From a virus: 56,506 nucleotides of DNA. The stretch's first letter is position 1. Each line of letters opens with the position of its first letter. Below, piece after piece: positions 5,156-50,430 of the stretch. The notes under the pieces are model-generated. The model ran no database searches. It saw only the letters and a program-made list of their open reading frames with translations, and was not told where the DNA came from. A program made the translations under genes and the position numbers. The stretch lies in the IMG/VR virus record IMGVR_UViG_3300029951_000034, one strand, 5' to 3'.

Positions 5156-5791
5156 ATGAAGTTGATGAATGCGGCCGGCCAGAACCGGCATGACACGCTT
5201 TATATCGCCGACGCGACCATCGTCACCGGCGGGACCGCTCAACTCGTTCTCGGCCGCTCGCAGTCGCGTTCGTTCCTGAAGCTTCAGAACCTCTCGGCCG
5301 GCCCGTTGTTTTTCGAGTTCGGCTCGGCCAGGGCGACTGCCGCAGTGTCGGGCGGGGTGGTCACTGGATGCACCGTCACCAACGCCGGCCGAGGCTTCAC
5401 CTACGCGCCGGTCATCGAGTTCCTGGGCGGGGGCGGTAACGACTTCCCCAATCCCAATCCGTCCTATGTCGGCTTGGGCCAGGACGGTGCGCCATCGCCT
5501 TCACACTTTGCCAGAGCCCACTGCGTCATGACCGGCACAGCGCCAAATCTAACCGTGGCGTCAATCGTCATCGACGATCCGGGGGCAAACTATCTCTGCC
5601 CGCCCTATGTGTTCATCCGAAATTCGGACCTCGACCCCAACGGCTCGGCCCTACCATCCGCGACCTCTGGGATGCTGCTTTCCGGTCAGAGCCCGCCCTA
5701 TATTCTAAATGGCACGGCCTGTAATACGGACCCCATTGCGGTCCTGGGCGCATCGACGGGACAAGCGTTCCTGGCGCGGTGGATGTCGTGA
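5156..5791 (+). CDS. hypothetical structural protein carrying one GxG(Y/F) module (211 aa)
   Basis: ORF preceded by GGAGAC. VVTGCTVTNAGRGFTYAPVIEFLGGGG matches the repeat module seen in 6399..9164, 45976..46767 and 47638..50430. Confidence 0.55.
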   Translation: MKLMNAAGQNRHDTLYIADATIVTGGTAQLVLGRSQSRSFLKLQNLSAGPLFFEFGSARATAAVSGGVVTGCTVTNAGRGFTYAPVIEFLGGGGNDFPNPNPSYVGLGQDGAPSPSHFARAHCVMTGTAPNLTVASIVIDDPGANYLCPPYVFIRNSDLDPNGSALPSATSGMLLSGQSPPYILNGTACNTDPIAVLGASTGQAFLARWMS

Positions 5792-6402
5792 ATCCCTTCC
5801 TTACCGTCTTTAAAAACGGCCTGGGGGCAGTCAATGCCGACAACCTGAATACGTTCGGCCAGGTCTGTGTCAATTATGCCCAACTCAAGGGCTTCATCGG
5901 CCTGACCTCCATGCAGGTCTATATGCAGGGGTTCACGTCGGCCGGAGATGGCGGACAGGGGAATTTTGTCTGGGTCGGAACCGGAACTGGGACCGATGAC
6001 GGTGGATTGACCACCATCGTCCCGATTGGCGTCACCCAGGGATACTGGAGTCGACTTTCCCTTGAGAGCGTTCAGCTCTACGTGACCGTATCGCCCCCAG
6101 TCACGTTTTCGATCACGATTGGGCCAGCCTATAATCAGAACTATATCCCCTTCAGCTATAGCGCGCCCACCCAGAACACCCTTTCGGCGTCGGCGGCCCT
6201 GGGGACATCCTTCGGCGGCTTTCAATTTGGTTCGGGACAAGTCCAGTTCGTGGCCGGGACCGGCGGGCAGATCATCAACGAGAACGGATACTCCGCGTCA
6301 TCGCAGCAGTATTCCCCATTCTGGGGAATCGTGGTTCAGCAGAACAACGTAAATTCGGCGGCAACTTGGCTGATGGGCGGTTCGTTGGCCGCGAATATAT
6401 GA
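5779..6402 (+). CDS. hypothetical tail-associated protein (207 aa)
   Basis: ORF overlapping the upstream gene by 13 nt. An alternative GTG start at 5788 would give a GTGA overlap. Confidence 0.5.
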   Translation: MDVVNPFLTVFKNGLGAVNADNLNTFGQVCVNYAQLKGFIGLTSMQVYMQGFTSAGDGGQGNFVWVGTGTGTDDGGLTTIVPIGVTQGYWSRLSLESVQLYVTVSPPVTFSITIGPAYNQNYIPFSYSAPTQNTLSASAALGTSFGGFQFGSGQVQFVAGTGGQIINENGYSASSQQYSPFWGIVVQQNNVNSAATWLMGGSLAANI

Positions 6403-9164
6403 CGAACTCTAGATTTCCTCTCTATCTGACCCGCACCAATGCGCCGCTCAATTCAATCGTGTCGAACTGGGTAGACGCCCTTCCTGGCGCTAGGATTCCT
6501 ATTCCCAGGCTGGAGGTGCTTAACAACGCCGTCATTGCCATGCTCAATGCCGGAATTATCCAGAACTTAGGTCTGCTATATTGGGGGTGGACTCCAGGAT
6601 TGACAAACACCGCCGTCGATTTCATCAACCCCGATATCGTCTACACGATCAACAATCCAGGCGGCAACGCCCTGATCAACAATCCCTATTCTGGAACAAA
6701 GGGAAACGGGACGTCAGGATATTATAATTGCAACATAATTCCTTCGGCCATTCCCGGAGTTGGTCTCGATACGAATAGTTTGTGGATGTACAGTCAGAGC
6801 GATCTTGGGCCGGTCTCGCCGTCTCTCAAGACCCGGGAATGTGGGGCGTCGGTGGACGGTTTTGAGTGGGGATGGAGCGAGCACACCGGAAGTCATGCTC
6901 AATTCTATGCGTTCGCGACGGGTGGCGGTCTGGTCTCCTCCGCTTACGGCGGGGGGTTCAAGGGCTTTAGTCGGACCAGTTCGGGTGGTGGGATCACCTG
7001 TCTGGATGGGGCGGTCATGCCGTGGAACGGGACGGTTGGCGGCTTTCCAACTGGCGATTTCTGTCTCTTTCGGGGGGGCACCAGCAGCACCGAATATAGC
7101 CAGAACAGCCTCTTTGCCGTCGGCGCGGGCGGAGAACTCACCAGCGCGCAATGGGTCGTGCTAAATCAGATCGTCCTCAATATGGTTCTGGCGTTAGGAA
7201 GCTATGTGACCCCGCCCGTCCCGCCAATCATTACCCCGCCCAATGCCTTCACCAACATCAGCTATTCCTCTGTAACTCCCTCGAATTGGATATCTTCGAG
7301 TGGCGTCATCGTGGTCGAAGGCAATCCACCGGCGGACAATTCAACGCCATTGCAGATTGCGTCGTTCATCGTATCCGCTGGAGGTTCCGGCTATTCCACC
7401 ACGCCCTCCGTTATCATCACGCCCTCCGGGGCCGGCTTGGGCGCGGCGGCTACGGCGACAGTCTCAGCGGGAGTGGTGACGGCGATTACGGTTACCAATG
7501 CCGGGACGGATTATTTTCCCCCACCCACCGTGAGCTTCACGGGCGGGGGGGGTAGCGGAGCGACGGCGGTCGCCGTGCTTACAGCCAATACCTACTACGC
7601 GCAATTCCCGCTCACCGTCGCACTCGGTCAAAATCGGGGAACAGCGCTCACATCGACCCAGACCATCGTACGGCCAGCCGAATTGATGTGGAGCGACCGA
7701 TGCACATCCAGCGGGTTTGCCCAGAACGTGAACGAAATTTTCCCGGCGATAATTCAACCGTCCACTGGACTCATCTGCGCCCCCCAGTTTTCGTCCCCGA
7801 CCCAGGCCATGTACGCCACCGCCTGCAAACTGGCCTGGTCCCTGGGGTGGATTCCGTTCAACGAGCCGCGCGATCCCAACGGCAACGGCTGGGGCGACTA
7901 TGCGGCGTTGGCCGGGTTCGACACCACCGGATTGAGTGTTATTGCCGCCTATCCCGCTACTGGTGTCGGCGCGGTCACGGTCACCGCTGGCGGAACCGGA
8001 TATGCGACAGCGCCAAGTGTGGTGTTCGGTGGGGACGGCTCGGGCGCGGCGGCTACGGCGACAGTCTCAGCGGGAGTGGTGACGGCGATTACGGTTACCA
8101 ATGCCGGGACGGGCTACACGCCAGGCCCGGTGATCACCATCACCGACAGCACCGGACCTGGGACCGGAGCCACCGCGACCGTGACAATCTCCGGCGGATC
8201 GGTGACAGGCTTCAACATTACCAATGCGGGAGCCGAATATGTCACGCCCGTAGTAACTATCACGGGCGGGGGGGGTAGCGGAGCGACGGCCACGGCGACG
8301 CAGACATCCGGCGCCATAACCGCCATGGCTGTCAGTGCCGGCGGCAGCGGTTACCCAGTTCCGCTCACCGTGAGCTTCACGGGCGGGGGGGGTAGCGGAG
8401 CGACGGCCACGGCCTATACCGCCAGCCAAGTCCTCACCACCGATGTGAACGCTTTCATCTGTCCCGGCATCCTTCACCGCGCCTATGCGGTAGCCAACGC
8501 GAACACCGTTTTCAATACCCCTCCATATGGGACAGCAAACGGCATCGTCTGCCTGAATACGACCATCCTTGGACTCGGACGAATCTGCGACACAACCAAT
8601 CCGTGGGGAATCGCGTTCGATTTCGAAATGGATGATAGTAGAGGCTCAACCCTAATCCTGATGACTAGAAATCTTTACGCTTCCATGGTTGCTGCCTGTG
8701 TTGTTGGTGGAGTCCAGATGAAGTGTCTGTTCTCCATGGACCCCATCGTTGGCGGGTCCGGAGAGTATATGGATATCACCCCCTCTAACGGTTACCTATT
8801 CTGCCTTTCTTCCACTGAGACGCAATCTGGTCCGACCTCACCCGGATACACGAATATCGTTGCTGGCGGCAATCCGTCTGGCGGCATGTTGGCCTATCTT
8901 AATGCCCAATATAATATCTATGCTGGACCAGGCGGCACAACCCCGATCAATGGCGCCAATTTCCTGATGCAGATGATTGTCGGAGTTCCGGCTATAACGC
9001 CAGACAATGCCCTGATTGCCAGGGACTTCGCTATCGCCAATGGGTTTTCCGGCGTTATCATCATTGGTAGTTTCGCTTCGCCCGGCGGGACTGGCATAGG
9101 GGTAAACGCGAGCGGCTATAATCTCGCCGTCGAGGCGCTCCTGGACATCTCGGCGACCTATTGA
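6399..9164 (+). CDS. large tail fibre/receptor-binding protein with about six GxGY-(GGGGSGATATA) modules (921 aa)
   Basis: ATGA overlap with 5779..6402. Repeated ...SAGVVTAITVTNAGTGY...FTGGGGSGATA... modules. The N- and C-terminal domains have lower GC than the repeat core. Confidence 0.7.
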   Translation: MTNSRFPLYLTRTNAPLNSIVSNWVDALPGARIPIPRLEVLNNAVIAMLNAGIIQNLGLLYWGWTPGLTNTAVDFINPDIVYTINNPGGNALINNPYSGTKGNGTSGYYNCNIIPSAIPGVGLDTNSLWMYSQSDLGPVSPSLKTRECGASVDGFEWGWSEHTGSHAQFYAFATGGGLVSSAYGGGFKGFSRTSSGGGITCLDGAVMPWNGTVGGFPTGDFCLFRGGTSSTEYSQNSLFAVGAGGELTSAQWVVLNQIVLNMVLALGSYVTPPVPPIITPPNAFTNISYSSVTPSNWISSSGVIVVEGNPPADNSTPLQIASFIVSAGGSGYSTTPSVIITPSGAGLGAAATATVSAGVVTAITVTNAGTDYFPPPTVSFTGGGGSGATAVAVLTANTYYAQFPLTVALGQNRGTALTSTQTIVRPAELMWSDRCTSSGFAQNVNEIFPAIIQPSTGLICAPQFSSPTQAMYATACKLAWSLGWIPFNEPRDPNGNGWGDYAALAGFDTTGLSVIAAYPATGVGAVTVTAGGTGYATAPSVVFGGDGSGAAATATVSAGVVTAITVTNAGTGYTPGPVITITDSTGPGTGATATVTISGGSVTGFNITNAGAEYVTPVVTITGGGGSGATATATQTSGAITAMAVSAGGSGYPVPLTVSFTGGGGSGATATAYTASQVLTTDVNAFICPGILHRAYAVANANTVFNTPPYGTANGIVCLNTTILGLGRICDTTNPWGIAFDFEMDDSRGSTLILMTRNLYASMVAACVVGGVQMKCLFSMDPIVGGSGEYMDITPSNGYLFCLSSTETQSGPTSPGYTNIVAGGNPSGGMLAYLNAQYNIYAGPGGTTPINGANFLMQMIVGVPAITPDNALIARDFAIANGFSGVIIIGSFASPGGTGIGVNASGYNLAVEALLDISATY
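7439..7509 (+). repeat. 71-bp perfect direct repeat, copy 1 (intragenic)
   Basis: gggcgcggcggctacggcgacagtctcagcgggagtggtgacggcgattacggttaccaatgccgggacgg is identical to 8042..8112. The offset of 603 bp keeps the reading frame. Confidence 0.9.
8042..8112 (+). repeat. 71-bp perfect direct repeat, copy 2 (intragenic)
   Basis: Identical to 7439..7509. Confidence 0.9.
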
Positions 9165-9174
9165 GGAGATCGAC

Positions 9175-9669
9175 GTGAAACGACTGACCCCCATAGCGAT
9201 CTTCGGATTGATAGTCAGTTTTCTTTTCTTTGGTCCGGTCGTCCGCGCCCAGACATCCAGCGCCATCGTGGTTTCGGCCTGCGGTACGCCGCCAGTGACC
9301 TATGTTGTTGGCCAGGCCTACCCGCAAACACAGACAGCGGGTGGGGTGGCCTGCGGCGGCTCTGGAGGCGGAGGAAGTTCGTCCATCACCTCGACCGTCC
9401 TCCCCACCGGCGCCACCAACAACCCCACCACCCAAGTCACCGTCACCACCTCCTCCACGACGCTGGTCGCCGCCAGAGCCGGCCGCGCGCTGCTGACCGT
9501 GCAGAACAACGGCACGAACCCCGAGTGGGTTGGCCCGTGTCCAGCCGTCGCATCGACTGGCTTGGAGATTTACCCCAACGGCGGCTCAATCACCTATCCC
9601 TCGGCCGCCCAGTGGTGCGGCATCGCGACGGGCGGCTCAAATTCGAACAGCACGTTGGAAATTTACTGA
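9175..9669 (+). CDS. small protein with an N-terminal Sec-type signal peptide (164 aa)
   Basis: GTG start 6 nt after GAGGAG. MKRLTPIAIFGLIVSFLFFGPVVRA/QT has a charged n-region, a hydrophobic core and a VRA-Q site. The rest is Thr/Ser/Gly-rich. Confidence 0.6.
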   Translation: MKRLTPIAIFGLIVSFLFFGPVVRAQTSSAIVVSACGTPPVTYVVGQAYPQTQTAGGVACGGSGGGGSSSITSTVLPTGATNNPTTQVTVTTSSTTLVAARAGRALLTVQNNGTNPEWVGPCPAVASTGLEIYPNGGSITYPSAAQWCGIATGGSNSNSTLEIY

Positions 9670-12029
9670 TGCGTCACCTCATCCTCGCTTCAGCATTTCT
9701 CACACTGGCGGCTTTCGGTGCTCATGCCCAGAATGTTGGCGTGGGTGGTATCTCGAATCCCCCCGGCCTCAACCCCAACGGCGGCGACGCCTCGGCGACG
9801 ACGGTGAGAGCAACTGGCGTGAGCGCGCCTTATGCGGCCTCTCTGGCGAACCTCGCGGCGCAATCCGGCGTCCTGCTGGACACGTTCGCACAATCCGGGG
9901 ACGCGGACGACACGGCCTCCATGACGCGCGCCGTGGCCGCTGGCGTTCCGATCCTGCTTGGGCCGCGCACCTACACGATCAACAATTTTTCCACCGGCGC
10001 CGTTGCCCAATTCATCCTTCGCGGCATTCCCGGCGCGAGCGTCATTCAGCGCACAGCGGCCAGTGGAAGCCATTTTTTCAGCATCGCCGCGACGTCAGTC
10101 TATATCGACGGCGTGACGTTCGATAGCAACAAGGCATCCGTCACGGCAAATCAGTGGGGCGTTCTGATGAACGCGGGGGGGCAAACTGTATTCGTTCAAA
10201 ACTCCAAGTTTGAGAATAATAGCGGCACAATCGGAAGCTGTTTTGCAATGCTTGGGACTGGCCCTGCTGCGGGCGGCGGTGTCACATTCAAAAACAATGA
10301 AGTTACTGGATGTACGTTTGACTCAGTCTATTTCGGGTCTGTGACAAACGGCGTTGTGGACGGAAACTACGTCCACGACAACACAGGCTTAGGGATATTT
10401 GCCGGCTCCTATCTATCAGCCAGTAGCACAAATTATCTATCAAACTTTATAATTTCCCATAACCGTTCCGTCAGGAACACGACGAATATCGCAATAGGTG
10501 GCTTCGGGCCTCCATACACCTATGGCACACCTTCAGCGGTTAATGTCCTGTCCGAAGCAAACTGGATGCAAGACGCGTCGGCATCGAGCTACAATTTGTC
10601 GATGCAAGGGGACCATTTGCAGTCGGTAGCCGATGTCATAACAGCCGCCACGACGACCGCCCTCGGCGGCATCGACTGCAACTCACGGTATGTATCAATT
10701 TCTCTGGCAAGCATCAATCTTCCTGGGTCTGGTTATGGGATAGACTGCGGGGGCGCGGTTCAGGCAAGCATACAGACCAATACTGTCACAATGACATCTG
10801 GAACCGCTCTGGATGTGGGGGGGACACAATACAGCATAGTCCAGGCGAACACGTTAAATCTATCTGGAACCGCGATAGGTGCTGTCATATACGAAGTGGA
10901 GGGTGATGGGAGCGGAAATGCCTTCCCAACAATTCAGTCCGGCCTAACCTTGCAGGACAACATATTTAACATTTCTGGATCATCGGCGACCGGAATTGAT
11001 TTGTTCGATAATGCTGGCGGTAGGACTGGATCATTTCCAACGCTCATACTAAACAACAAATTTAACGTATCAGGAAGTGGATCTGGGCCATTCCAGGATA
11101 TAACTTATTTCGGGGGAAATAGCTCAATTGTCATTCAGGGAAATTATCATAACGGAACAACAACGACATTCTCAGACCCTCAGCCGGACGGTGACGTGCA
11201 GTATGACAACGTATGGGACGGAGTCCAGGGTGTGTCGTCAACGGCGTCTATTCGCTCATTTGTCCCGATTTATATCGCTACGTATGGCGCGGGCGGCAGC
11301 ATCCTCTACGTAGAAACAGCGACGGGCGGGAGCGGTTATGTTGCTACTACTACCACGATGGCGTGCAGTGGAACCGGCGGTGGTAGTGGCTGGGTGGGCA
11401 CGGCCTCGATAAACGCCGGCGTAATCTTGGGAGTTAAGACGACGGCGCACGGCTCAGGGTATTCCGGAACTCTGAGTTGCAGCGCCACCGATACAAGTGG
11501 GGGGACGGGAGCTACCTTTACGGTATCTAATATTCCTCAACTTCCTGGCTTGAAAGACTTTTATTGGAACGATGTTGCTGGGAATTTGATAGAGATCGCT
11601 GGGGGGTATATCTCAATTTCAGGGCTTGGCGGTGCGTTTCCCATGGGGCCCAATCAGCGCCTCAGTCTAAGAAGTGCGGGGGGGTTTAACTGGCAAGTGG
11701 TGGCCTCCCTTCCAGTCTCTACCGCGCCCACAATCTCAAGCGGCTTCGGCACGGGCGCGTCGCGAACCGTCAGCAATGGCCCTCTTTCATTCAACATCAA
11801 TGTTGGAACGGGGGGCGCGGCATCAACGGGCGTAATTGGTCTTCCTACAGCTAGCACGGGGTGGACTTGCAGTGTAACCGATATCACCAGCAAGAGCGCG
11901 GCGGTATCAAGCACGCAGATGACCGCTAGCACCACCAACACGGCAACAATCGGAAATTTCACTGACATTTCGACCAGCGGGCCGTGGAATGCGGGCGACA
12001 ACTTACGTATTTCGTGTACGCCCCAATGA
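9669..12029 (+). CDS. 786-aa beta-helix (tailspike/pectin-lyase-fold-like) protein with an N-terminal Sec-type signal peptide
   Basis: TGATG overlap with 9175..9669. MRHLILASAFLTLAAFGAHA/QN signal-like N-terminus. GDADDTASMTRAVAAGVPILLGPRTYTINNF is followed by many short N/G-rich beta-helix-type turns. The central part is markedly low in GC. The ORF-track extension to 9525 was not used. Confidence 0.65.
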   Translation: MRHLILASAFLTLAAFGAHAQNVGVGGISNPPGLNPNGGDASATTVRATGVSAPYAASLANLAAQSGVLLDTFAQSGDADDTASMTRAVAAGVPILLGPRTYTINNFSTGAVAQFILRGIPGASVIQRTAASGSHFFSIAATSVYIDGVTFDSNKASVTANQWGVLMNAGGQTVFVQNSKFENNSGTIGSCFAMLGTGPAAGGGVTFKNNEVTGCTFDSVYFGSVTNGVVDGNYVHDNTGLGIFAGSYLSASSTNYLSNFIISHNRSVRNTTNIAIGGFGPPYTYGTPSAVNVLSEANWMQDASASSYNLSMQGDHLQSVADVITAATTTALGGIDCNSRYVSISLASINLPGSGYGIDCGGAVQASIQTNTVTMTSGTALDVGGTQYSIVQANTLNLSGTAIGAVIYEVEGDGSGNAFPTIQSGLTLQDNIFNISGSSATGIDLFDNAGGRTGSFPTLILNNKFNVSGSGSGPFQDITYFGGNSSIVIQGNYHNGTTTTFSDPQPDGDVQYDNVWDGVQGVSSTASIRSFVPIYIATYGAGGSILYVETATGGSGYVATTTTMACSGTGGGSGWVGTASINAGVILGVKTTAHGSGYSGTLSCSATDTSGGTGATFTVSNIPQLPGLKDFYWNDVAGNLIEIAGGYISISGLGGAFPMGPNQRLSLRSAGGFNWQVVASLPVSTAPTISSGFGTGASRTVSNGPLSFNINVGTGGAASTGVIGLPTASTGWTCSVTDITSKSAAVSSTQMTASTTNTATIGNFTDISTSGPWNAGDNLRISCTPQ

Positions 12030-35789: not shown

Positions 35790-36192
35790 CGCTTCTCCGT
35801 CCGCCTATGTGGTCGTCCAAACCGGCTCCACCATCTGGCCCGGCGGCTCGCATCCAGGCCTGGCCGGTCGATTCCTGGCCGACATCGACGGCGGCCCGAA
35901 GGTCGCGATCACACCCGGCGGCATGACCCACACCGTCGCCGAAGGCCACCATGTCGTCACTCGCTGGCAATGGACGATCTGGGGTCCGAAGTACCCGGTT
36001 TCGACGCAGATCGACGTGAGCGCCGGGCAGACCGTGCGGCTTGCGCTCGATCGCTATCGCGGCGTCAGTCCCGGCGTCTCGCTTGCCGGCGGCGTGTTCG
36101 GTCTGGCGGGCGGTGTCGTGATGGGCGCGCTTCAGTCTGGCGGCCAAGCCGGAGACCGACCTGATGGCGACTATCTGGATGTGGTCCCGTGA
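35776..36192 (+). CDS. hypothetical protein with a C-terminal Gly-rich TM segment (138 aa)
   Basis: ORF with high GC3. Confidence 0.5.
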   Translation: MTPTDASPSAYVVVQTGSTIWPGGSHPGLAGRFLADIDGGPKVAITPGGMTHTVAEGHHVVTRWQWTIWGPKYPVSTQIDVSAGQTVRLALDRYRGVSPGVSLAGGVFGLAGGVVMGALQSGGQAGDRPDGDYLDVVP

Positions 36193-36252
36193 CTCGCCTC
36201 GCCCGTCTCCGCGCCTGGCTGATCATCAGGGGTTGCTGGCGATACCTTCGAC

Positions 36253-36405
36253 GTGATCCTGTTTCCGCGTGGTTACATCGCCAGGCAACAGGTGGAACAA
36301 GCGGCGGCGACGCAGAGAGCCATGCAGCACTTCATGGAGGCGGTTTTCGAGGAGAGCGCCGATGGGGTCCAGGAACGCATGGTTGAGCGGCCGACGATCC
36401 AATGA
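36253..36405 (+). CDS. hypothetical protein (50 aa, GTG start); its relation to ORF 36189..36386 is unclear
   Basis: The GC3 signal moves from frame 0 to frame 1 around 36230-36250. Confidence 0.35.
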   Translation: MILFPRGYIARQQVEQAAATQRAMQHFMEAVFEESADGVQERMVERPTIQ

Positions 36406-36420
36406 CGAGGAAGCCCAGGA

Positions 36421-36711
36421 ATGCGAAACCGGCTGATGCGGGTGAGGCGGAGGGAAACGCTGAAGACGCTCCGGAAGTTGAGGTTGCGCGAGAAGATGTT
36501 GCGGGCTTACCCGCCGATGGTGGCGACAGGGTGGGGGCCAGAGGGGCCGATTCCGACCCTGCCGGGCAAGTTGTACGATCAGCCCCCGACGATCAGTTGG
36601 GAGACGTCGATCTTCAAGTTGACAAGGGCCGCGAGACGGAAGTTCTTCTCGACGGCCCCACCCTCGCCCGAAACTGGCGCCGTCCCGGCCCGCACCCCGG
36701 ACGAGGACTAG
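36421..36711 (+). CDS. hypothetical protein with a very basic N-terminus (96 aa)
   Basis: Much higher GC3 than the overlapping frame 36402..36716. Confidence 0.55.
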   Translation: MRNRLMRVRRRETLKTLRKLRLREKMLRAYPPMVATGWGPEGPIPTLPGKLYDQPPTISWETSIFKLTRAARRKFFSTAPPSPETGAVPARTPDED

Positions 36712-36715
36712 GCTG

Positions 36716-36985
36716 ATGCCCGACTATCTGGCGCCGCCGGACCTATCCGGTGAGTCCGCGAAGAAACCGGACGAGATCGAGGATTATGCCTTCGATAGTT
36801 CCAACATTGCCTCTGCGCGGTACGACGGCGCGAAGGGCGAGGCGATCATCACCATGGCGCGGGATGGGAGCCAATACCTCGCCACGGGAGTGAGCAAGGA
36901 GCTGTGGTCCGATTTCAAACTCTCCGGCTCGCCGGGGAAGTTCTTTCACGCCAATCTCAAGGATTTGGTGGCGGGGAAGGTTTGA
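36716..36985 (+). CDS. KTSC-domain protein (89 aa)
   Basis: FDSSNIASARYDGAKGEAIITMARDGSQYLATGVSKELWSDFKLSGSPGKFFHANL. Confidence 0.6.
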   Translation: MPDYLAPPDLSGESAKKPDEIEDYAFDSSNIASARYDGAKGEAIITMARDGSQYLATGVSKELWSDFKLSGSPGKFFHANLKDLVAGKV

Positions 36986-37015: not shown

Positions 37016-37177
37016 ATGAGCGCTCACCCGCACCCGGACGGCCCACGATTTCCGCTGCGGCTGGCGATCCCGATGAACGCGGAGATCGTCGCCGCGCTGG
37101 TTGAGCGGGCGGCCACCGAGAGCATTCCCAAGACGACGCTGGCGCGGAAGTTGATCCTGGAGGGGTTACGGAAATGA
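37016..37177 (+). CDS. ribbon-helix-helix protein (53 aa)
   Basis: Below the ORF-track cutoff. RFPLRLAIPMNAEIVAALVERAATESIPKTTLARKLILEGL. Its stop overlaps the next ATG (ATGA). Confidence 0.5.
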   Translation: MSAHPHPDGPRFPLRLAIPMNAEIVAALVERAATESIPKTTLARKLILEGLRK

Positions 37178-37683
37178 CGATCATCGCGTGGCGGGATGGG
37201 GTGATCGCGGCCGACACCGGCCACTGGCAAGGCCCGATCGATGTCGGCCCGGTCCAGAAGTTGAAGCGCCTGGCTGACGGGACGATCTATGGTTGCGCCG
37301 GAGACTGCTCCGACATTCGCGAGTTCGAGGAATGGGCGGACATGGGATTTCCGACCGTGGAAAAACCGCCGAAATTCGAGGACTTCGCGGCGGTTCTGAT
37401 GAAGCCGGACGGCACGGTCTGGCAAACGGACGGCCTGCGGCCTCCCTACGCCATGCCGGGCGAGTTCGGCGCCGTGGGCATCGCCGAGCGGTTTGCCCTG
37501 GGGTGTCTGGCCATGGGCGCGAGCCCAGAACAGGCGGTGGCCAAGGCGATCCAATACTGCGCCTATTGCAGCGGCGAAGTGGTGGTGGTGTCGTTGGACG
37601 ATGATGGCGTCGCCGAACCCGACGAACCCGCCGTCAGCGTCGTCGACGGCCGAGACTGGCTCCGAAAGCGCGGACTGGCCTGA
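37174..37683 (+). CDS. proteasome/HslV-like Ntn-hydrolase (Thr peptidase) homologue (169 aa)
   Basis: Thr is at position 2. TIIAWRDGVIAADTG, VQKLKRL, YGCAGDCSD and GAVGIAERFALGCLAMGA...CSGEVVVV are collinear by eye with the HslV motifs. Confidence 0.55.
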   Translation: MTIIAWRDGVIAADTGHWQGPIDVGPVQKLKRLADGTIYGCAGDCSDIREFEEWADMGFPTVEKPPKFEDFAAVLMKPDGTVWQTDGLRPPYAMPGEFGAVGIAERFALGCLAMGASPEQAVAKAIQYCAYCSGEVVVVSLDDDGVAEPDEPAVSVVDGRDWLRKRGLA

Positions 37684-38324
37684 TGGACCCATATGCGGAA
37701 TTGGGCGTCAATCGTGACGCGCCGATCGAGGTGGTGCGCCGCGCCTACCGCAAGGCGGCCAAGAGGGCGCACCCGGATCACGGGGGCTCCACCGATGCGT
37801 TCACCAAGCTGAACCGGGCGCTGAAGGTCCTGACCGATCCGGAGCGGAGGGCGCACTACGACCGCACCGGAGAGGATGCGGAACCAAAGCCGGACGGCAC
37901 AGAAACGCGGGCCATGCAGACCGCGTTTCAGGCCTTGGGCAACGTCATCGCCAATCTCCAGGCCCAATCGTTCAACCCCGAGACCATGGATGTGTTGGGC
38001 ATGGCGGTCAAAGACCTCGGGATCGTGTTGGGCAAGATGGAATCGATAGCCAAACAGGCGCGGGCCAACGCCGACAAGGCCACGAAGTTGGGCAAGCGTT
38101 TCAAGGCCAGGAGGGGAAAGCCCGATATCATCGGCCCCATGTGGGCCGCCCATGTCGCCGGCCTTGAACAGCAGGTGGTGACCGCCCTGGCCGACAAGCC
38201 CGTGGTCGAGCGCGCCATCGCTATCCTGAAGGATCACGAGTTCGAGGTTCTGGCGCGGGAAGCGGCGCCCTATGGCCGCCCGCTATCGCCCTTTGCCACG
38301 ATGCTTCAGTCGCCTATGGTCTAG
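37683..38324 (+). CDS. J-domain (DnaJ-like) protein with a helical C-terminal region (213 aa)
   Basis: DPYAELGV...AYRKAAKRAHPDHGG...LTDPERRAHYDRTG with the HPD tripeptide. TGATG overlap with the upstream gene. Confidence 0.8.
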   Translation: MDPYAELGVNRDAPIEVVRRAYRKAAKRAHPDHGGSTDAFTKLNRALKVLTDPERRAHYDRTGEDAEPKPDGTETRAMQTAFQALGNVIANLQAQSFNPETMDVLGMAVKDLGIVLGKMESIAKQARANADKATKLGKRFKARRGKPDIIGPMWAAHVAGLEQQVVTALADKPVVERAIAILKDHEFEVLAREAAPYGRPLSPFATMLQSPMV

Positions 38325-38327
38325 GTC

Positions 38328-40226
38328 ATGGCCCAGACCGCTCCCAAGGCGTCCAGCTATCTGAAGCTGCTGCCAGCCTTCTCCGCCGACCTTCGCATTT
38401 CCTCCAAGGAGGTCATGCAGTCGGACGAGCGGGGGACCAAGCTTGTTCTCTGGGAATCGCAGAAGCGCGCCTTGAACTTCGTCGGTAAGGGGCTCGATGA
38501 CGGTATCCACACCTTTTACATCGCCAAGTCCCGCCAGCTCGGAATCACGACCGCGACGCTGGTGGTCGATGTGTTCTGGGCGGCGATGTTCCCCGGCCTC
38601 AATGGCTGCATCGTCACCGACACCGAGAAGAACCGGGACCGCAACCGTCAGATCATCGTCGGCTATGTCAATTCGTTTCCGGAAGGATACTTCGGGGATT
38701 ACTTCACGATCACGACCAATAATCGCCAAGTCATCCGTTTCTCCAACGGGTCACAGTTTGAGTTGCTGGTCGCTGGTGTACAGAAGAAGAAAAGTACATC
38801 TTGGGGCGAGGGTTCGGGCTACAATTATTGCCACCTGACCGAGGTCGCCGCCTACGGCGACGTGGCTGGCCTGGAATCCTTGGAGGAGGGCTTTGCCCAG
38901 GAAAATCCAAACCGGGTGTTCATCTACGAAAGCACCAGCAAGGGCCACAACCACTGGCGGGACCGCTATCTTGAAGGCCAGTCTGATCCATTCAGCAAGC
39001 GCTCGGTCTTCATCGGCTGGTGGGCGGGCGACACCAACCGGATCGAGCGCAACGACGCGCGCTTCGCGATGTTCGGCGAGGCCAAGCCCAGCGGGGCGGA
39101 ACTGGAGAAGCTGAACGCCGTCAAGCTCCTCTACGACTGGATCGTGACGCCGGAACAACTTGCCTGGCACAGGTGGCGCTCGGCCAACCCCTCCGCCGAC
39201 CTGGACCTCTTGCAGCAGAATCAGCCGTGGACGGCCGACGAGAGCTTCGTGATGACCGGCTACTCGTTCTTCCAGACGAGGCAGGTCAGCAAGGACATCC
39301 AGGAAATCGCGTCTGGCGACTACGAGTACATCGCCTATCGCTACAACCTGACCAACAGCTTCTTCGAAATGACCCTGGTCCCGATCACCGATGAGGATGA
39401 CCGCGACCTGATCGAACTTCGCGTATGGGAGCCGCCGGTTCCGGAAGGCAAGTATGTGATCGGCTTCGATCCGGCCTGGGGCCGCACGGACCATGGCGAC
39501 CGAAGCGTCATCGCCATCTGGCGCTGCTTCGCCGACAAGATGGTGCAGGTCGCCGAGTTCGCCACGGCCAGCGTCGAATTGATCCAATGCACCTGGGTTC
39601 TGGCGCATCTGGCCGGGGCCTACAAGGACTGCGTGGTCAACATCGAACTCAACGGGCCGGGCCGGGTGGTCATGGTGCAGTGGAACCAGCTTCTGGCCCA
39701 GATGCGCGACAAGGTGACCAACGCCCAGGACGGTCCCTCGACATGGGAGGACGCCCTGCCGACCGCCCGCTGGTATCTCTACCACAAGCCCGACACCATG
39801 GGCGCGGGCTACGCCTACAACACCGACTCGTCGTCGCGGGTGAAGCAGGAGTTGCTGCACAATTTCCGGGGCCACTACTTCACCCGCGACCTGATGATCC
39901 GGTCCATCCCCCTGCTCCAGGAAATGCTGATCGTCGTCCAGAACGGCAATGTCATCGGCGCCCCGGAAAGTTCCAACGGCGACTGTAAGGACGACCGGGT
40001 GTTCGCCTCCGCCTACGCCGTGGCGGCGTGGCTTGATTGGCGCCGGGTTCCGATGATATCCAATGGAGAGACCTACGAGCGGGCCATGAAGCTCAAGGAA
40101 GAGGGCGAGTTGAGCATGAACGAGCGCATCAACAAGATCGCCTACGGCTTCATGCATAAGGCCATAGAGGCCCAGGCCACCGCCGACAACCGGCCCAAGT
40201 GGCTCGCTGACCGTGGCTTAATTTGA
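38328..40226 (+). CDS. terL: terminase large subunit
   Basis: 632 aa. IAKSRQLGITT (Walker A-like), HLTEVAAYG, IYESTSKG, and a C-terminal RNase-H-like VIGFDPAWGRTDHGDRSVIAIW. Confidence 0.85.
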   Translation: MAQTAPKASSYLKLLPAFSADLRISSKEVMQSDERGTKLVLWESQKRALNFVGKGLDDGIHTFYIAKSRQLGITTATLVVDVFWAAMFPGLNGCIVTDTEKNRDRNRQIIVGYVNSFPEGYFGDYFTITTNNRQVIRFSNGSQFELLVAGVQKKKSTSWGEGSGYNYCHLTEVAAYGDVAGLESLEEGFAQENPNRVFIYESTSKGHNHWRDRYLEGQSDPFSKRSVFIGWWAGDTNRIERNDARFAMFGEAKPSGAELEKLNAVKLLYDWIVTPEQLAWHRWRSANPSADLDLLQQNQPWTADESFVMTGYSFFQTRQVSKDIQEIASGDYEYIAYRYNLTNSFFEMTLVPITDEDDRDLIELRVWEPPVPEGKYVIGFDPAWGRTDHGDRSVIAIWRCFADKMVQVAEFATASVELIQCTWVLAHLAGAYKDCVVNIELNGPGRVVMVQWNQLLAQMRDKVTNAQDGPSTWEDALPTARWYLYHKPDTMGAGYAYNTDSSSRVKQELLHNFRGHYFTRDLMIRSIPLLQEMLIVVQNGNVIGAPESSNGDCKDDRVFASAYAVAAWLDWRRVPMISNGETYERAMKLKEEGELSMNERINKIAYGFMHKAIEAQATADNRPKWLADRGLI

Positions 40227-46837: not shown

Positions 46838-47638
46838 ATGGCCCTGAGCGACTATCTGAACACGACATCGGCGCTTCTAAGGGACCAGAACTTCGCCTTC
46901 ATCAGCAAGACGCAGCTCACCGGATGGATCAACACGAGCCGTGTCACCGTCGCCAAGCGCACCGGCTGCATTCGCCGCTTCGTGACCGGACAGTCGGCCT
47001 GGGGGGCCACGGCGCAACCTGGCTCGATGATCCCCGGCGCCATCCAACCCGGCGCCCTGCCGGCCGCGCAGCCCAGCATCACCGGATCGGCGGTGGGCGG
47101 TCTTCAGACCATCCCCGGCGTCGAGCGCTACCCCTATGAGGGCTTCTTCAACCCGTATATGCAACAGCAGTACGACGGCATTCGCGGGATCGTCGATGTC
47201 ATCACCCTGTCGGTCAACTGGGGTGGCGGCGGGGCTTTCAAGCCGGCTCTGGACTGGTTGCCATGGGAGGACATGCAGGCCTACTGCCGTTCGGTCTCGA
47301 CTCAGATGTTCAACGACCCTGCCGTCTGGAGCGTCTATAACGACGGCGAGGATGGCGAGGTGTGGATGTGGCCGCCCCCCTCGCAAATCGGCGTCATCGA
47401 GGCGGACACAACCTGTCTGCCTGCGCCGCTGAACACCGACGACGACTTCGACGCCATTCCCAAGAGTTTTCGCGACGCCATCAAGTTCGGGGCCGCCTCC
47501 CTGGCCTTCCTGGGCTCGCAGCGCTACGCCCAGGCGGAGGTCATGGATAGCCTGTTCATGAAGGCTCTTGGCGTCGATCGAGTAGCCGTGGATCGGGGAA
47601 AGACGCAGCGGTACTACCCGCAAACCAGGTTTGGCTGA
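46838..47638 (+). CDS. putative head-to-tail adaptor / tail tubular protein A-like protein (266 aa)
   Basis: Assigned by gene order only (capsid, this gene, then the large nozzle-like protein). Confidence 0.4.
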   Translation: MALSDYLNTTSALLRDQNFAFISKTQLTGWINTSRVTVAKRTGCIRRFVTGQSAWGATAQPGSMIPGAIQPGALPAAQPSITGSAVGGLQTIPGVERYPYEGFFNPYMQQQYDGIRGIVDVITLSVNWGGGGAFKPALDWLPWEDMQAYCRSVSTQMFNDPAVWSVYNDGEDGEVWMWPPPSQIGVIEADTTCLPAPLNTDDDFDAIPKSFRDAIKFGAASLAFLGSQRYAQAEVMDSLFMKALGVDRVAVDRGKTQRYYPQTRFG

Positions 47639-50430
47639 TGGCCAACGTCGTTGACCAAGCCTCGCGCGGGATGGGCCTGCCGAACCATTGGAAGTTCTTC
47701 TCGCCCTACCCCTTCAGCGGGATCAACCTTCAGTCCTCGCCGGTCGCGGTCAACGATCAGGAGTTTCTGTGGGTCGAGAACTTCCTGAAGTTGGGCGATG
47801 GCTATCTGAGGACCGCTTGGGGACCAGGCGCGGCCTTTTACACCGCCCCAACCGGCAAGACGATCATCAGCTTCAATTGGTACGTCATCGGCGAGAGCGA
47901 CTATGTGGCGGTGTTCCTGAGCGACGGATCGGCCGTCCAAGTGGCGTGGCCCGGCGGCGCCCAGACCGTCATCGGGCCGGCCGCGACGTTCTATAACGCC
48001 ACCTCCGGTTTCATCCCAGCGGTCAGCCAATATGGCGCGCTATACATCCTGATTTCCAACCGCAATTCGGTCAACGACTACTGGGCCTGGGATGGCGCGC
48101 TACTTTATGGCGCGGGCACGGCGGCGCCCAACGGCGTGGTTCTGCTGTCGAGTGGCCTGAAATATGACACTCTGCCCACGGTAACCGCCTTCGGCGGCCT
48201 GGGGTCGGGCATGGTGGTCGTTCCGTCGATCAATGCCGGTGGCGTGGTCTATCTCAACATCACTAACCCCGGCCACGGCTACGGCGTCGGCGATGTTGTG
48301 CAACTGGCCTTCAGTGGCGGCGGGAGCGACACCTCGGCTATCCTGACGGCGAACCTGAACACCGGCGGCGTGGCCGGTGTCAATATCACCGGCGGCGGAA
48401 CTGGATATACCTCGGCCACGGCGGCCTTCAGCGGCGGCGGCGGCACGGGCGCGGCCGGAACCGTCATTATCGGTTCCGGCGTCGCCACGCTCAACCTGAC
48501 GGCTGGCGGGTCAGGTTACGGCAGTGGCGCCGGGGTCAGTTTTACCGGCGGCGGTGGGTCAGGGGCCACGGCGACCGCCACGGTCACCGGCGGGGTCGTC
48601 ACGGCGCTTACGATCACCAGCCCAGGGTCTGGCTACACCTCGGCGCCCACGGTGGCCATTATCGGGGCGGGGACCGGAGCCACAGCCACGGCGACGGTCC
48701 AGAACGACATCATCATCGGCGTGACCATGACCAACCCCGGCACGGGTTACACGACCGCGCCCACGGTGACCTTCAGCGGTACGGGAACCGGCGCGACCGG
48801 CGTGGCGGTGCTCGACCCCACCAGCGTGGAGGGCGTGACCGTGGTCAATCCGGGGTCCGGGTTCGTCTACGCGCCGGCCATCGCTTTCGTCGGTGGAGGC
48901 GGGACCGGGGCGACCGGGACCGTGGAACTGGTCGGGACCTCTATCGCCAAGGTCAATGTGATCTCTGGGGGACAGAACTATCAGAAGGTCCCCACGGTGA
49001 TCTTCACCGGCGGCGGAGCGGGGACCGGCGCGGCGGCTACGGCGATCCTGGGCGGCGGGGAGGTGATCGCCATCAACCTGACCGATGGAGGGTCCGGCTA
49101 TACGACCAACGTCGAAGTCATCATCCAGCCGGCGAATTTCAACACCACCAGCCAGGATACCGGGACCGGGGCCGGGGCCATCGCCATCTTTCAACCCACC
49201 TCTATCGCCGGGGTGCAGATGATGAGCTATGGGCTCAACTACACGACCGCCCCAGCCATCGAGGTCCAGTCGGGGGCCAACAGCTCGGCCTACGCCACCG
49301 TCCAACTCATGCCGTTCGGTGTGTCGGGATCGTCCATCGAGACGTTTCAGTCTCGGGTGTGGATCTGCGATCCGGCCCCCGGCCAGTTTTCGCCACTGCC
49401 CACCGGCGGCAACTTCGCGGTTAGCGCGCCCGGCTCGATCACCGACTTCGCGACTTCCGACGGCGGCCTGCTGTTCACCAACTCCGACTCGTTCCTCAAG
49501 AAGCGCTATGTCGCCATCCACCAGTCTAACGGCTACCTCTACTTCTTCGGGGACCATTCCTGTTCGGTGGTCTCCAACGTCCAGACTAGCGGCAACCCGG
49601 CGACCACGACATTCGCCTATCAGAACGTCGATCCCCAGGTTGGCCTGTCCTGGCGAGACAGCTTGATCGACTTCGGCCGGTCAACCCTATTCGCCAACGA
49701 GACGGGGCTCTATGGTCTCTACGGCGGTGCGGTGTCGCGCATCTCCTCCAAGCTGGCGACGCTGTTCGACGATGCGGTGTTCCCGCCCACCGGCGGCGCC
49801 CTGGTCCCCACCTCGGCCATCGCCACGCTGTTCGACATCAAGCATGTGATGATGCTGATGACGGTGACTGACCCTGATACCGAAGCGGCGCGGAACGTCA
49901 TGGTCACATGGAACGAGCGGGAGTGGGTGGTCACCTCGCAGGGGCTCGCTCTGACCTTCATCGGATCGCGCACTTTCAACTCGACCTATTACGCCTACGG
50001 GACCGATGGGGCCTCTCTCTACCCGCTGTTCGCCCAGTCGTCCAACACCCTGACCAAGCGGCTGGATACCAAGCTATACGGCAACGACAAGCCGTTCATG
50101 ACCAAGGAGATGGATGCGCTCTATCTGGTGGCGTCGGACCTGTCGGCCGGGGCGGTCGGCATCGCCATGGACGTGACCGCCGTCTCGTCCGGCCAGGCGC
50201 TTCAGAACCCGTTCGATACGACCACCCAGAACGCGACCTACGCCGACCCCTTCCTTCAGCCGATCGATTTCGCCTCCCCCTCGCCCTACTGGGCCACCTG
50301 GGGAAGCGGGACTGGCGGCGGGTCCGTTCCGTTCACCAGCATGGGGCTCCGGTTCACGACCACCAGTCCGGATTTTGCTTTGGGCCATCTCATGATAGCT
50401 TACCATGATAGTTCCGCCATCGCGGGCTAA
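47638..50430 (+). CDS. putative nozzle / tail tubular protein B-like protein with about nine inserted GxG(Y/F) modules (930 aa)
   Basis: TGATG overlap with the upstream gene. The N- and C-terminal beta-rich regions flank GGTGYTSATAAFSGGGGTGAAG-type repeats. Confidence 0.5.
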   Translation: MANVVDQASRGMGLPNHWKFFSPYPFSGINLQSSPVAVNDQEFLWVENFLKLGDGYLRTAWGPGAAFYTAPTGKTIISFNWYVIGESDYVAVFLSDGSAVQVAWPGGAQTVIGPAATFYNATSGFIPAVSQYGALYILISNRNSVNDYWAWDGALLYGAGTAAPNGVVLLSSGLKYDTLPTVTAFGGLGSGMVVVPSINAGGVVYLNITNPGHGYGVGDVVQLAFSGGGSDTSAILTANLNTGGVAGVNITGGGTGYTSATAAFSGGGGTGAAGTVIIGSGVATLNLTAGGSGYGSGAGVSFTGGGGSGATATATVTGGVVTALTITSPGSGYTSAPTVAIIGAGTGATATATVQNDIIIGVTMTNPGTGYTTAPTVTFSGTGTGATGVAVLDPTSVEGVTVVNPGSGFVYAPAIAFVGGGGTGATGTVELVGTSIAKVNVISGGQNYQKVPTVIFTGGGAGTGAAATAILGGGEVIAINLTDGGSGYTTNVEVIIQPANFNTTSQDTGTGAGAIAIFQPTSIAGVQMMSYGLNYTTAPAIEVQSGANSSAYATVQLMPFGVSGSSIETFQSRVWICDPAPGQFSPLPTGGNFAVSAPGSITDFATSDGGLLFTNSDSFLKKRYVAIHQSNGYLYFFGDHSCSVVSNVQTSGNPATTTFAYQNVDPQVGLSWRDSLIDFGRSTLFANETGLYGLYGGAVSRISSKLATLFDDAVFPPTGGALVPTSAIATLFDIKHVMMLMTVTDPDTEAARNVMVTWNEREWVVTSQGLALTFIGSRTFNSTYYAYGTDGASLYPLFAQSSNTLTKRLDTKLYGNDKPFMTKEMDALYLVASDLSAGAVGIAMDVTAVSSGQALQNPFDTTTQNATYADPFLQPIDFASPSPYWATWGSGTGGGSVPFTSMGLRFTTTSPDFALGHLMIAYHDSSAIAG

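Follow-up and report, generated by a model that had tools for sequence, protein, structure and literature searches.

Several described phage systems bear on the genes considered here. PPH proteins, which have been described computationally, comprise about 140 residues and lack helix H2, an absence that is the hallmark of PPH and of the related RPC cluster, whose members carry C-terminal extensions (PMC8665760). Rki of phage RB43, the first phage J-domain protein to be characterised, consists of a J domain followed by a C-terminal domain, binds DnaK and stabilises sigma32 (PMC3486835). In DNA packaging, the C-terminal tails of large terminases (TerL) bind the portal or prohead, as in lambda gpA, T3 gp19 and T4 gp17, and the C-terminal tails of adaptor proteins bind the portal clip (PMC5389665, PMC12407722); for T3, a hexapeptide analogue of the prohead-binding site exists (PMC5389665). 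Here we analyse a locus in the virus record IMGVR_UViG_3300029951_000034 of IMG/VR, a stretch of 56,506 nucleotides that we refer to as the window. Between positions 37,016 and 38,324, directly upstream of the large terminase gene (terL), three open reading frames (ORFs) encode a ribbon-helix-helix (RHH)-like protein (ORF1), a proteasome-like peptidase (ORF2) and a J-domain protein (ORF3). We found that ORF2 belongs to the PPH family and ends in a short motif that recurs at the C termini of TerL and of unrelated small proteins encoded upstream of terL in relatives. Its position and this motif suggest that ORF2 is wired into genome packaging, by a mechanism that we infer from better known packaging proteins.

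A PPH peptidase with a terminase-like tail

ORF2 matched the PHROG family phrog_1040, 'peptidase HslV family', with E=3e-31. A profile of five ORF2-family sequences recovered HslV from PDB at E=2e-11 and proteasome beta5 at about 1e-5. Using an AlphaFold2 (AF2) model built on 73 homologues (pLDDT 88.5, pTM 0.79), Foldseek retrieved HslV (1m4y, E=6e-9), 20S beta and BPH (5ovs) from PDB with a probability of 1.0 and TM scores of 0.58-0.68; the structural alignments with HslV showed about 16-20% identity. These searches place ORF2 inside the proteasome-beta/HslV fold of N-terminal nucleophile (Ntn) hydrolases, in agreement with a sequence-only reading of this DNA that had compared ORF2 with HslV by eye. 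The protein begins with MTIIAW, so that a threonine directly follows the methionine, as that reading had pointed out, and the Thr1 and Lys equivalents are both present. The predicted nucleophile is Thr2, and Asp14, Lys29 and Gly43 of ORF2 are the equivalents of Asp17, Lys33 and Gly47. A start of the form M-[T/S] was found in 70 of the 73 aligned homologues, and the Thr/Ser-Asp-Lys-Gly set was conserved in 168/168 typed family members. Removal of the methionine would expose the threonine, with no propeptide. In the model, strands S5 and S6 (38-42 and 72-76) are separated by a single helix (45-56), so helix H2 is absent. By its predicted fold, its catalytic triad, the lack of a propeptide and the missing H2, ORF2 is a member of PPH.

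ORF2 is not a bona fide HslV. It had no match at E<=1 in NCBIfam or Pfam, the HslV models and PF00227 included; where the GSG motif is expected it has GIA (102-104), with Ile103 in place of the Ser129 equivalent; and no HslU-like AAA+ family was found among the window proteins scanned. The resemblance to HslV seen by eye therefore extends to the fold and the Thr and Lys residues and stops short of a true HslV, and ORF2 may use the HslU of the host. The Asp166 equivalent is likewise missing, with Cys129 in its place. Within the 168 family members, 45 (27%) lack the Asp166 equivalent and 28 (17%) lack both it and the Ser129 equivalent, in several lineages. Second-shell residues are thus often missing in the family, which indicates that Ser129 and Asp166 are dispensable in PPH and do not define it. 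For the same reason, together with the invariant triad, we rejected the idea that ORF2 is a dead pseudo-protease. We also rejected the idea that loss of the two residues marks a J-linked subclade, because many PPHs without a J-domain neighbour share it. Conservation of the triad speaks for a functional enzyme, and we regard ORF2 as a putative active peptidase.

Homologues of ORF2 occur in 205 phage records, including those of phiCbK-like, Phapecoctavirus and Rhizobium phages, all at less than 35% identity; a word-seeded search with ORF2 alone returned only ORF2 itself. Many homologues from Stephanstirmvirinae-like phages (P0002-P0030; Klebsiella phage KP13-16, L005:4001-4915) are about 290-305 aa long and have a C-terminal extension of about 150 aa; possibly they are the proteins that Fuchs et al. 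grouped as the 'RPC' cluster. Their genes adjoin phoH, nrdAB and a Ser/Thr phosphatase gene. Another PPH, P0087 (146 aa, L009:5001-5441), is encoded in a head-morphogenesis block, after an SPP1-type portal gene and a Gp13-like gene and before tail genes, and may be a structural-module enzyme.

Beyond its PPH core, ORF2 carries an extension (residues 141-169) that was modelled at a pLDDT of 55-79 with a helix at 159-165, and that ends in DWLRKRGLA. The TerL encoded downstream ends in KWLADRGLI (40197-40223). Every member of this TerL family (window; L013, L016-L039, L136-L226) terminates in [W/Y/F]-x4-G-[L/V/I]-x(0-5)-COOH, for example AWKRERGLA in L016, RWKTDRGLA in L019 and YLKRIGVYG in distant members. 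This peptide is likely to be a docking tail, and it seems not to have been described for the family. The same skeleton, W-x4-G-L, ends the variable proteins that are encoded between an RHH gene and terL or a J gene in this lineage, which we call slot proteins: DWRERMGLA in L017, GWKEKLGLA in L018, DWKTKRGLR in L019, SWRENSGLL in L142, AWREKMGLA in L145 and GWRRQYGLD in L216. The slot proteins are small and acidic, fall into at least two unrelated families and several singletons, and none matched a known family. In addition to the window, the tail is fused to a PPH in two genomes, L016 (AWRERMGLV) and L013 (NWRDGYGLGDAA), and in these three genomes the PPH is the only tail-bearing protein encoded upstream of terL. 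In these genomes, a PPH core has thus replaced the usual N-terminal domain of the slot protein.

A strict regular expression for the tail gave 12 hits in 5475 ORFs of loci with J-domain genes and 0 hits in 10406 ORFs of control loci; when the ORF ends were shuffled, the mean was 0.59 hits and the maximum 3. The expression was designed after the first examples had been seen, but it is borne out by the controls and shuffles and by independent loci found later. One hit, FKKERGL in L049, is the end of a second J domain and was discarded as a false positive. The carriers of the tail comprise two multi-member families and several singletons, at least 5 unrelated families, as well as the PPH fusions. 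Synonymous differences separate the 3' end of the PPH gene from that of terL, which indicates that the likeness of their tails is kept at the peptide level. When the tails were aligned manually, with the aromatic residue and the G-L pair as fixed points, two classes could be told apart, with W-x-[ST]-[DE]-x-G-L(-A) in TerL and W-R-x-[KNR]-x-G-L in slot proteins.

Comparison of the loci showed that the core module in this TerL lineage is an RHH gene, a gene for a variable slot protein and terL, and that the J and PPH genes are accessory. In loci that lack the J gene (L139, L141-144, L148 and L172), an RHH gene is followed by a gene for a tail-bearing protein of 84-150 aa that directly abuts terL, and the slot gene overlaps terL in such relatives. 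In L149-151 and L158, a J gene is inserted between the slot gene and terL. The order in L145-147 is RHH, PPH, a 150-aa slot protein and terL; set against the fusions, the separate PPH and slot genes of L145 hint at a functional link of the Rosetta-stone type. L216, from an independent collection, repeats the pattern of RHH, slot and terL, but with a gap of 0.9 kb between the slot gene and terL. A slot protein could be detected with the regular expression in only about 30% of the non-redundant loci of the TerL lineage.

Within this lineage, the J gene recurs directly before terL. It abuts terL in 10 of 13 J-seeded loci, with a gap of 0-40 nt (L016, L017, L018, L019, L021, L023, L024, L027, L030 and L039), and is again adjacent to it in TerL-seeded loci (L140, L149-151, L156-158 and L161), in the contigs L217 and L219 of metagenome-assembled genomes (MAGs) and in the metagenome contig L228; over all adjacent loci, the gap to a terL of the window type is 0-52 nt. 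In a set of 80 TerL-seeded loci, the J gene was adjacent in 9 of the 31 close relatives with enough upstream sequence, and in 6 of 24 after redundancy had been removed. The pairing of peptidase and co-chaperone, which the sequence-only reading had put forward, did not prove general. Among 80 PPH-seeded viral loci, neither a J domain nor a terL of the window type was found within 5 kb (0/80), and PPH and J genes are combined in only 4 genomes, so we rejected a conserved PPH-J pair as a rule. Elsewhere, PPH genes lie beside nrdAB and phoH, NAD genes, ligase and RNA polymerase genes or an integrase gene, or in a head module.

The neighbouring proteins and the genome context

ORF3 matched Pfam DnaJ (PF00226) with E=1.5e-15 and 57.5 bits (cutoff 27.8), and its AF2 model (pLDDT 93.3) shows a four-helix J fold followed by a four-helix bundle; the canonical J domain with a helical tail that had been read from the sequence is therefore borne out. 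H30, P31 and D32 are invariant in 23 members of the ORF3 family. Matches to DnaJ models were confined to the J region of ORF3 (residues 1-90), and G/F, zinc-finger and DnaJ C-terminal domains are missing. Foldseek against PDB returned J domains only, with a weak full-length match to HscB, which likewise combines a J domain with a helical bundle. In a viral structure library, full-length matches of 189-236 aa were annotated as DnaJ or chaperone, including one of Alteromonas phage R7M. The tail domain had no match in PDB, PHROG or Pfam. An exhaustive search for this domain in 1.84 billion proteins yielded 81 representatives, nearly all of them 190-225 aa long with the domain at about residues 70-200, which indicates a fixed architecture of J and tail domains that is never fused to anything else. 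On its profile match and model, ORF3 is a type-III J-domain protein with a private helical domain, and its invariant HPD motif suggests that it would act through the DnaK of the host. In isolated phages, homologues with both domains are encoded in replication or recombination blocks (R7M and Strzyga) or upstream of a gene for a 702-aa protein (RHph_N65). L049 has tandem J-domain genes, one at 5160-5777 (206 aa, with a C-terminal J domain) and then a member with both J and tail domains at about 5998-6624.

ORF1 alone had no match in Pfam or PDB and only weak matches in PHROG (E=0.017 and 0.049). It aligns with the product of a gene that overlaps the start of the PPH gene in L016, where the overlap of the RHH and PPH genes is the same as in the window, and with that of a small gene in L013. 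A profile built from ORF1 and these two homologues recovered the family 0.4-0.9 kb upstream of the J gene or terL in many loci. Two members of the family matched Pfam RHH_1 over its full length, at E=0.002-0.003 and 18-18.5 bits (cutoff 20.5), and one matched a PHROG Arc-like repressor (E=0.014). When a profile of 17 family sequences was compared with PDB, it recovered CopG at E=0.011 and then VapB26, PutA-RHH, NikR, ParD and other RHH proteins at E values up to 1.5. The ORF1 family is therefore probably RHH, with marginal scores, and the earlier assignment of ORF1 to this fold gains its support through family members rather than through ORF1 itself.

The three genes were confirmed on the plus strand with the boundaries given in Table 1, and the peptide motifs quoted earlier are present in their translations. 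ORF1 and ORF2 are joined by an ATGA overlap (37174-37177), and ORF2 and ORF3 by a TGATG overlap (37681-37685; TGA at 37681-83 and ATG at 37683-85). The stop codon of ORF3, TAG at 38322-24, is separated by 3 nt from the ATG of terL at 38328. A Shine-Dalgarno (SD)-like sequence precedes ORF1 (GAGAGGGA) and another precedes ORF2; none was seen at ORF3 or terL, which would fit translational coupling. The GC content at third codon positions (GC3) is 0.82-0.85 in ORF1-3 and 0.84 in terL, compared with 0.65-0.77 in the early genes upstream. The step from 0.65-0.77 to 0.79-0.89 falls at 36192-36421, upstream of two small genes, one for a 96-aa basic protein and one for an 89-aa protein (36716-36985) that matched KTSC (PF13619, E=3.7e-8). 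This step suggests that the early-to-late boundary, and with it the start of a late or packaging transcription unit, is placed there; no convincing sigma-70 promoter or terminator was found around 36192-36421. The genes for the 96-aa basic protein and the KTSC protein are probably in the same transcription unit as ORF1-3. A small gene for a KTSC-domain protein recurs near the RHH, PPH, J and terL genes in L013 (6568-6765) and L016 (2805-3008).

An identical ORF2 was found on four independent metagenome contigs of 56.3-56.5 kb, in which gene callers give the same three genes, so the window appears to be the essentially complete genome of an uncultured phage. It encodes tail-fibre and Ig-repeat structural proteins, a serine recombinase, TerL, a portal protein and a major head protein, and its replication block contains a sliding clamp, a helicase, a methyltransferase and a primase-helicase. 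No relative at the DNA level was found among 50,697 phage records. All relatives are metagenomic, and a scan of genomes gave only MAG bins (Acidobacteriaceae, Beijerinckiaceae/Methylocapsa and Opitutales).

Several further features of the window and its relatives were observed. The portal gene, together with a gene for a 69-aa partner in the window, is encoded on the strand that does not carry terL and the head genes in five cases (the window, L016, L017, L019 and L032), and on the same strand as terL in L024, L027, L030 and L039; the portal block is thus inverted within the lineage. L013 encodes the closest relative of the J protein (51% identity). Its terL is broken up into overlapping ORFs, one of 425 aa and one of 225 aa (7882-9803), which could reflect a frameshift, an assembly error or programmed recoding, and the RHH gene lies between the J gene and terL rather than upstream of the PPH gene. 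Two proteins of about 930 aa with Ig-like repeats (6366-9164 and 47638-50430) matched virion-structural and baseplate families in PHROG through their repeats only. ARAGORN predicted a tRNA-Gln(CTG) of 98 nt at 47214-47311; it lies inside a structural gene with high GC3 (46838-47638) and is probably a false positive.

Table 1. Coordinates of the module, its neighbours in the window and slot-protein genes of related loci
Feature	Position	Strand	Basis or remark
ORF1, 53-aa RHH-like putative DNA-binding protein	37016..37177	+	first conserved gene of the module
ORF2, 169 aa	37174..37683	+	
ORF2 core, residues 1-141, PPH-family proteasome-like Ntn domain (predicted)	37174..37596	+	profile, model, alignment
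ORF2 C-terminal extension: acidic low-confidence linker, short helix with tail DWLRKRGLA (37654-37680), stop	37597..37683	+	
ORF3, 213 aa	37683..38324	+	
ORF3 J domain, residues about 1-66; HPD at 37770-37778	37683..37880	+	Pfam DnaJ
ORF3 tail domain, residues 73-183, predicted four-helix bundle, conserved R139, motif RAIxILxDxxFE	37899..38231	+	AF2 model
terL, 632 aa	38328..40226	+	phrog_2 E=5e-12; tblastn to annotated large terminases E=5e-91
Portal protein, 594 aa	41594..43378	-	annotated portal of MW202825, E=4.5e-63; syntenic in relatives, either strand
Two small genes upstream of ORF1 (96-aa basic protein; 89-aa KTSC-domain protein)	36421..36985	+	GC3 0.86, 0.79
Slot-protein genes	L139:4181-4495; L142:4241-4492; L145:1550-1993; L150:3600-3878; L172:3250-3585		
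Further slot-protein genes	L017:46-519; L018:2962-3273; L019:5323-5616; L216:3228-3584		

A packaging role and its alternatives

The sequence-only reading had seen no recognisable small terminase (TerS) upstream of terL and had guessed that one of the three proteins might act in packaging. The first observation holds at the level of hidden Markov models. PHROGs and Pfam gave no TerS match for ORF1-3, for their neighbours or for the 41 small or unannotated proteins of the window, and none of the slot and RHH proteins of the relatives matched a TerS family. ORF3 ends just before a terL of the same orientation, which is a TerS-like position; position alone is no proof of membership, and none of ORF1, ORF2 and ORF3 can be claimed as a TerS. 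ORF3 in particular is unlikely to be the small terminase, because it has no TerS fold or family, its homologues in R7M and Strzyga lie in replication blocks and the J gene is missing from most loci of the TerL lineage. The guess of a packaging role, by contrast, gains support from the PPH in the slot position and from the C-terminal tail that it shares with the slot proteins and TerL. We consider the slot proteins to be candidates for the missing small terminase, or for a motor regulator, of this lineage.

The reading that we favour, with a probability of roughly 45%, is that the window derives from an uncultured tailed phage of about 56 kb in which ORF1-3 form the 5' end of the DNA-packaging operon. 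ORF2 would be tethered to TerL or the portal vertex by its tail, ORF3 would recruit DnaK there and DNA binding would be the task of ORF1. The analogy with the C-terminal tails of the TerL proteins of lambda, T3 and T4 suggests that the W-x4-G-L tail is a docking peptide. The part of the packaging machinery that recognises it would be TerL or the portal vertex, and the portal protein is a candidate receptor. ORF2 would probably be tethered as an oligomer that displays several tails. The host Hsp70, DnaK, brought in by ORF3, would help to assemble or remodel this complex, and ORF1 could serve either in autoregulation of the operon or in recognition of the packaging site. A more far-reaching version of this proposal, which we regard as unlikely, is that W-x4-G-L is a portable docking signal, of which TerL uses one version and the interchangeable proteins encoded just upstream carry a second. 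A ring-forming PPH together with the RHH protein would then be the equivalent of a small terminase or a regulator of the motor, and host Hsp70, recruited by the adjacent J protein, would serve in the assembly or recycling of the terminase-portal complex. If true, this would be the first case of a proteasome-family enzyme and of an Hsp70 co-chaperone built into a viral DNA-packaging motor.

Several observations weigh against the proposed tethering of ORF2 to the packaging machinery. The PPH genes of the 205 phage records and the 80 viral loci lie in early, metabolic or other contexts, none of them with a J domain or this terL, and the ORF3 homologues of R7M and Strzyga are encoded with replication genes. 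A J gene adjoins terL in only 6/24 non-redundant loci of the lineage and the fusion of PPH and tail is limited to 3 genomes, which implies that neither gene is essential to the packaging system. In addition, the tails of TerL and of the slot proteins carry systematically opposite charges at position +3, acidic in the former and basic in the latter. 'Mimicry' of the TerL tail may therefore be the wrong word, and the two kinds of tail may bind related but distinct sites, or each other. The tails of TerL and slot proteins covaried within the first 7 genomes (p=0.006 and 0.003), but 4 genomes found later showed no significant covariation (p=0.67 and 0.38); in a non-redundant set of 11, the values were p=0.03 and 0.001. 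We consider this covariation of the two peptide sequences to be only suggestive.

The main rival explanation is that the three genes form a module for taking over host proteostasis, have no role in packaging and merely lie at the early-late boundary beside terL. ORF3 would titrate or redirect DnaK, as Rki does, and the PPH would degrade host or phage proteins or interfere with the host HslUV. Rki itself is a precedent, in that it joins a J domain to an uncharacterised C-domain, binds DnaK and stabilises sigma32. The neighbourhoods described above also speak for such a role, with PPH genes of other phages found among nrdAB/phoH, NAD, ligase/RNA polymerase and integrase genes and the J-tail genes of R7M and Strzyga in replication blocks, as does the accessory nature of both J and PPH within the TerL lineage. 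We nevertheless think it somewhat improbable, because it leaves unexplained the tail of the TerL and slot type on the PPH, the exact replacement of the slot protein, the late-type GC3 and the repeated insertion of a J gene 0-52 nt from terL, the J proteins concerned sharing only about 26-46% identity.

A more specific variant, conceivable though rather unlikely, is that the RHH protein and the slot protein together are the unrecognised small terminase of the lineage, a role that ORF1 and ORF2 would jointly fill in the window. The RHH protein would bind DNA, while the slot protein would supply an oligomeric core and a tail that binds TerL, with a ring-forming PPH core substituted in the window. 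Known small terminases bind TerL through a segment at their C terminus. A division of labour of this kind would account for the failure to detect a TerS family in the window and its relatives. It also fits the pairing of an RHH gene with a gene for an 84-158-aa protein with a conserved C-terminal peptide immediately upstream of terL, overlapping it where the J gene is absent. The N-terminal domains have been swapped and the tail kept, as expected if only a TerL-binding tail were constrained, and in L013, L016 and the window itself no protein other than the PPH bears the tail. The acidic slot proteins, however, have no counterpart among TerS folds or families; they are detectable by regular expression in only about 30% of the non-redundant loci, and in L216 the slot gene is 0.9 kb away from terL. 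Moreover, the catalytic set of the PPH is intact, which a pure scaffold would not need.

Another specific variant, which we consider very unlikely, makes ORF2 a maturation protease of the prohead or a protease that is itself encapsidated, with its tail directing it to the procapsid or portal vertex. Loading of proteins into capsids commonly relies on C-terminal targeting peptides, and the PPH gene of L009 lies inside a head-morphogenesis block, between portal/major capsid protein-like and tail genes. The window contains no strong match to a prohead protease family and only a weak match to a scaffold family (PF06810, E=9e-4). Against this, most relatives with the same major capsid protein, portal and TerL have no PPH at all, so that it cannot be the maturation protease of the lineage, and the ORF2 gene is upstream of terL rather than between the portal and major capsid protein genes. 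Finally, a toxin-antitoxin-like pair without a link to packaging, in which an RHH antitoxin or autorepressor would control a peptidase toxin, is highly unlikely: the ATGA overlap of an RHH gene with the gene downstream is typical of type-II systems and L016 shows the same RHH-PPH overlap, but the RHH family also occurs upstream of unrelated slot proteins without a PPH, the 53 aa of ORF1 are too short for a toxin-binding extension, PADLOC gave no hits and no PPH toxin is known.

Relation to known systems

In the literature searched (open-access papers and preprints), we found no experimental work on PPH, no link between a J domain and a terminase, no RHH-slot-(J)-terL module and no shared tail of this kind. 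The view that no phage module like this one had been described appears to hold for the arrangement as a whole, but a phage J-domain protein has a precedent in Rki. Among proteins of the proteasome family, only PPH has been described as truly viral, and the locus offers a testable handle on its role. Characterised phage J-domain proteins amount to a single case, and here a J family is repeatedly inserted right before terL. If the tail is a docking signal, it would define how accessory enzymes reach the packaging motor and would point to the missing small terminase of a widespread phage lineage of soil and freshwater; if it is not, the cassette is still a compact example of how a phage manipulates host proteostasis.

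Compared with the PPH family (phrog_1040), ORF2 has the same proteasome-beta/HslV fold, a core of about 140 residues without a propeptide, the Thr/Ser-Asp-Lys residues with an oxyanion Gly and no H2, and like its relatives it comes from a tailed phage. It differs in its 29-residue C-terminal linker with a tail of the TerL/slot motif, found only in the window, L013 and L016, in lacking the Ser129 and Asp166 equivalents, which is a minority state, and in being encoded in a putative packaging operon rather than in an early or metabolic region. With HslV (ClpQ), its best match in PDB by both profile and structure, ORF2 shares the fold and the N-terminal Thr nucleophile, whereas H2, the serine of GSG, a match to the NCBIfam and Pfam HslV models and an HslU-like gene in the window are all missing. 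ORF3 and Rki are both phage-encoded type-III J-domain proteins, and for both, action via host DnaK is expected. In each, the N terminus is formed by a J domain of about 70 aa that contains HPD, and a short linker connects it to a C-terminal domain of about 140-160 aa. Rki, however, is an ORFan in a T4-like early region, whereas ORF3 is typically encoded directly before terL and has a tail family of 81 representatives. A tblastn search with ORF3 in the 50,697 phage records (E<=1e-3) hit 9 of them, with neither RB43 nor a T4-like phage among the hits and no direct alignment to the Rki sequence made; on this search, ORF3 is analogous to Rki and not detectably homologous to it.

The W-x4-G-L tail resembles the docking tails of lambda gpA, T3 gp19 and T4 gp17 and of head-completion adaptors in being a short, flexible C-terminal peptide. 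The known tails dock to the portal or prohead, whereas here a similar skeleton is also found at the C termini of a peptidase and of unrelated small proteins whose genes lie upstream of terL, with charges that differ between TerL and slot proteins. The module shares with small terminase genes a position directly upstream of terL and apparent translational coupling; it differs in that the gene abutting terL encodes a J protein, the slot protein is a peptidase and DNA binding would come in trans from the RHH protein. The kinds of component are thus known, whereas the RHH-slot-(J)-terL module, the tail shared by TerL and slot proteins and the fusion of this tail to a proteasome-family protein appear to be new.

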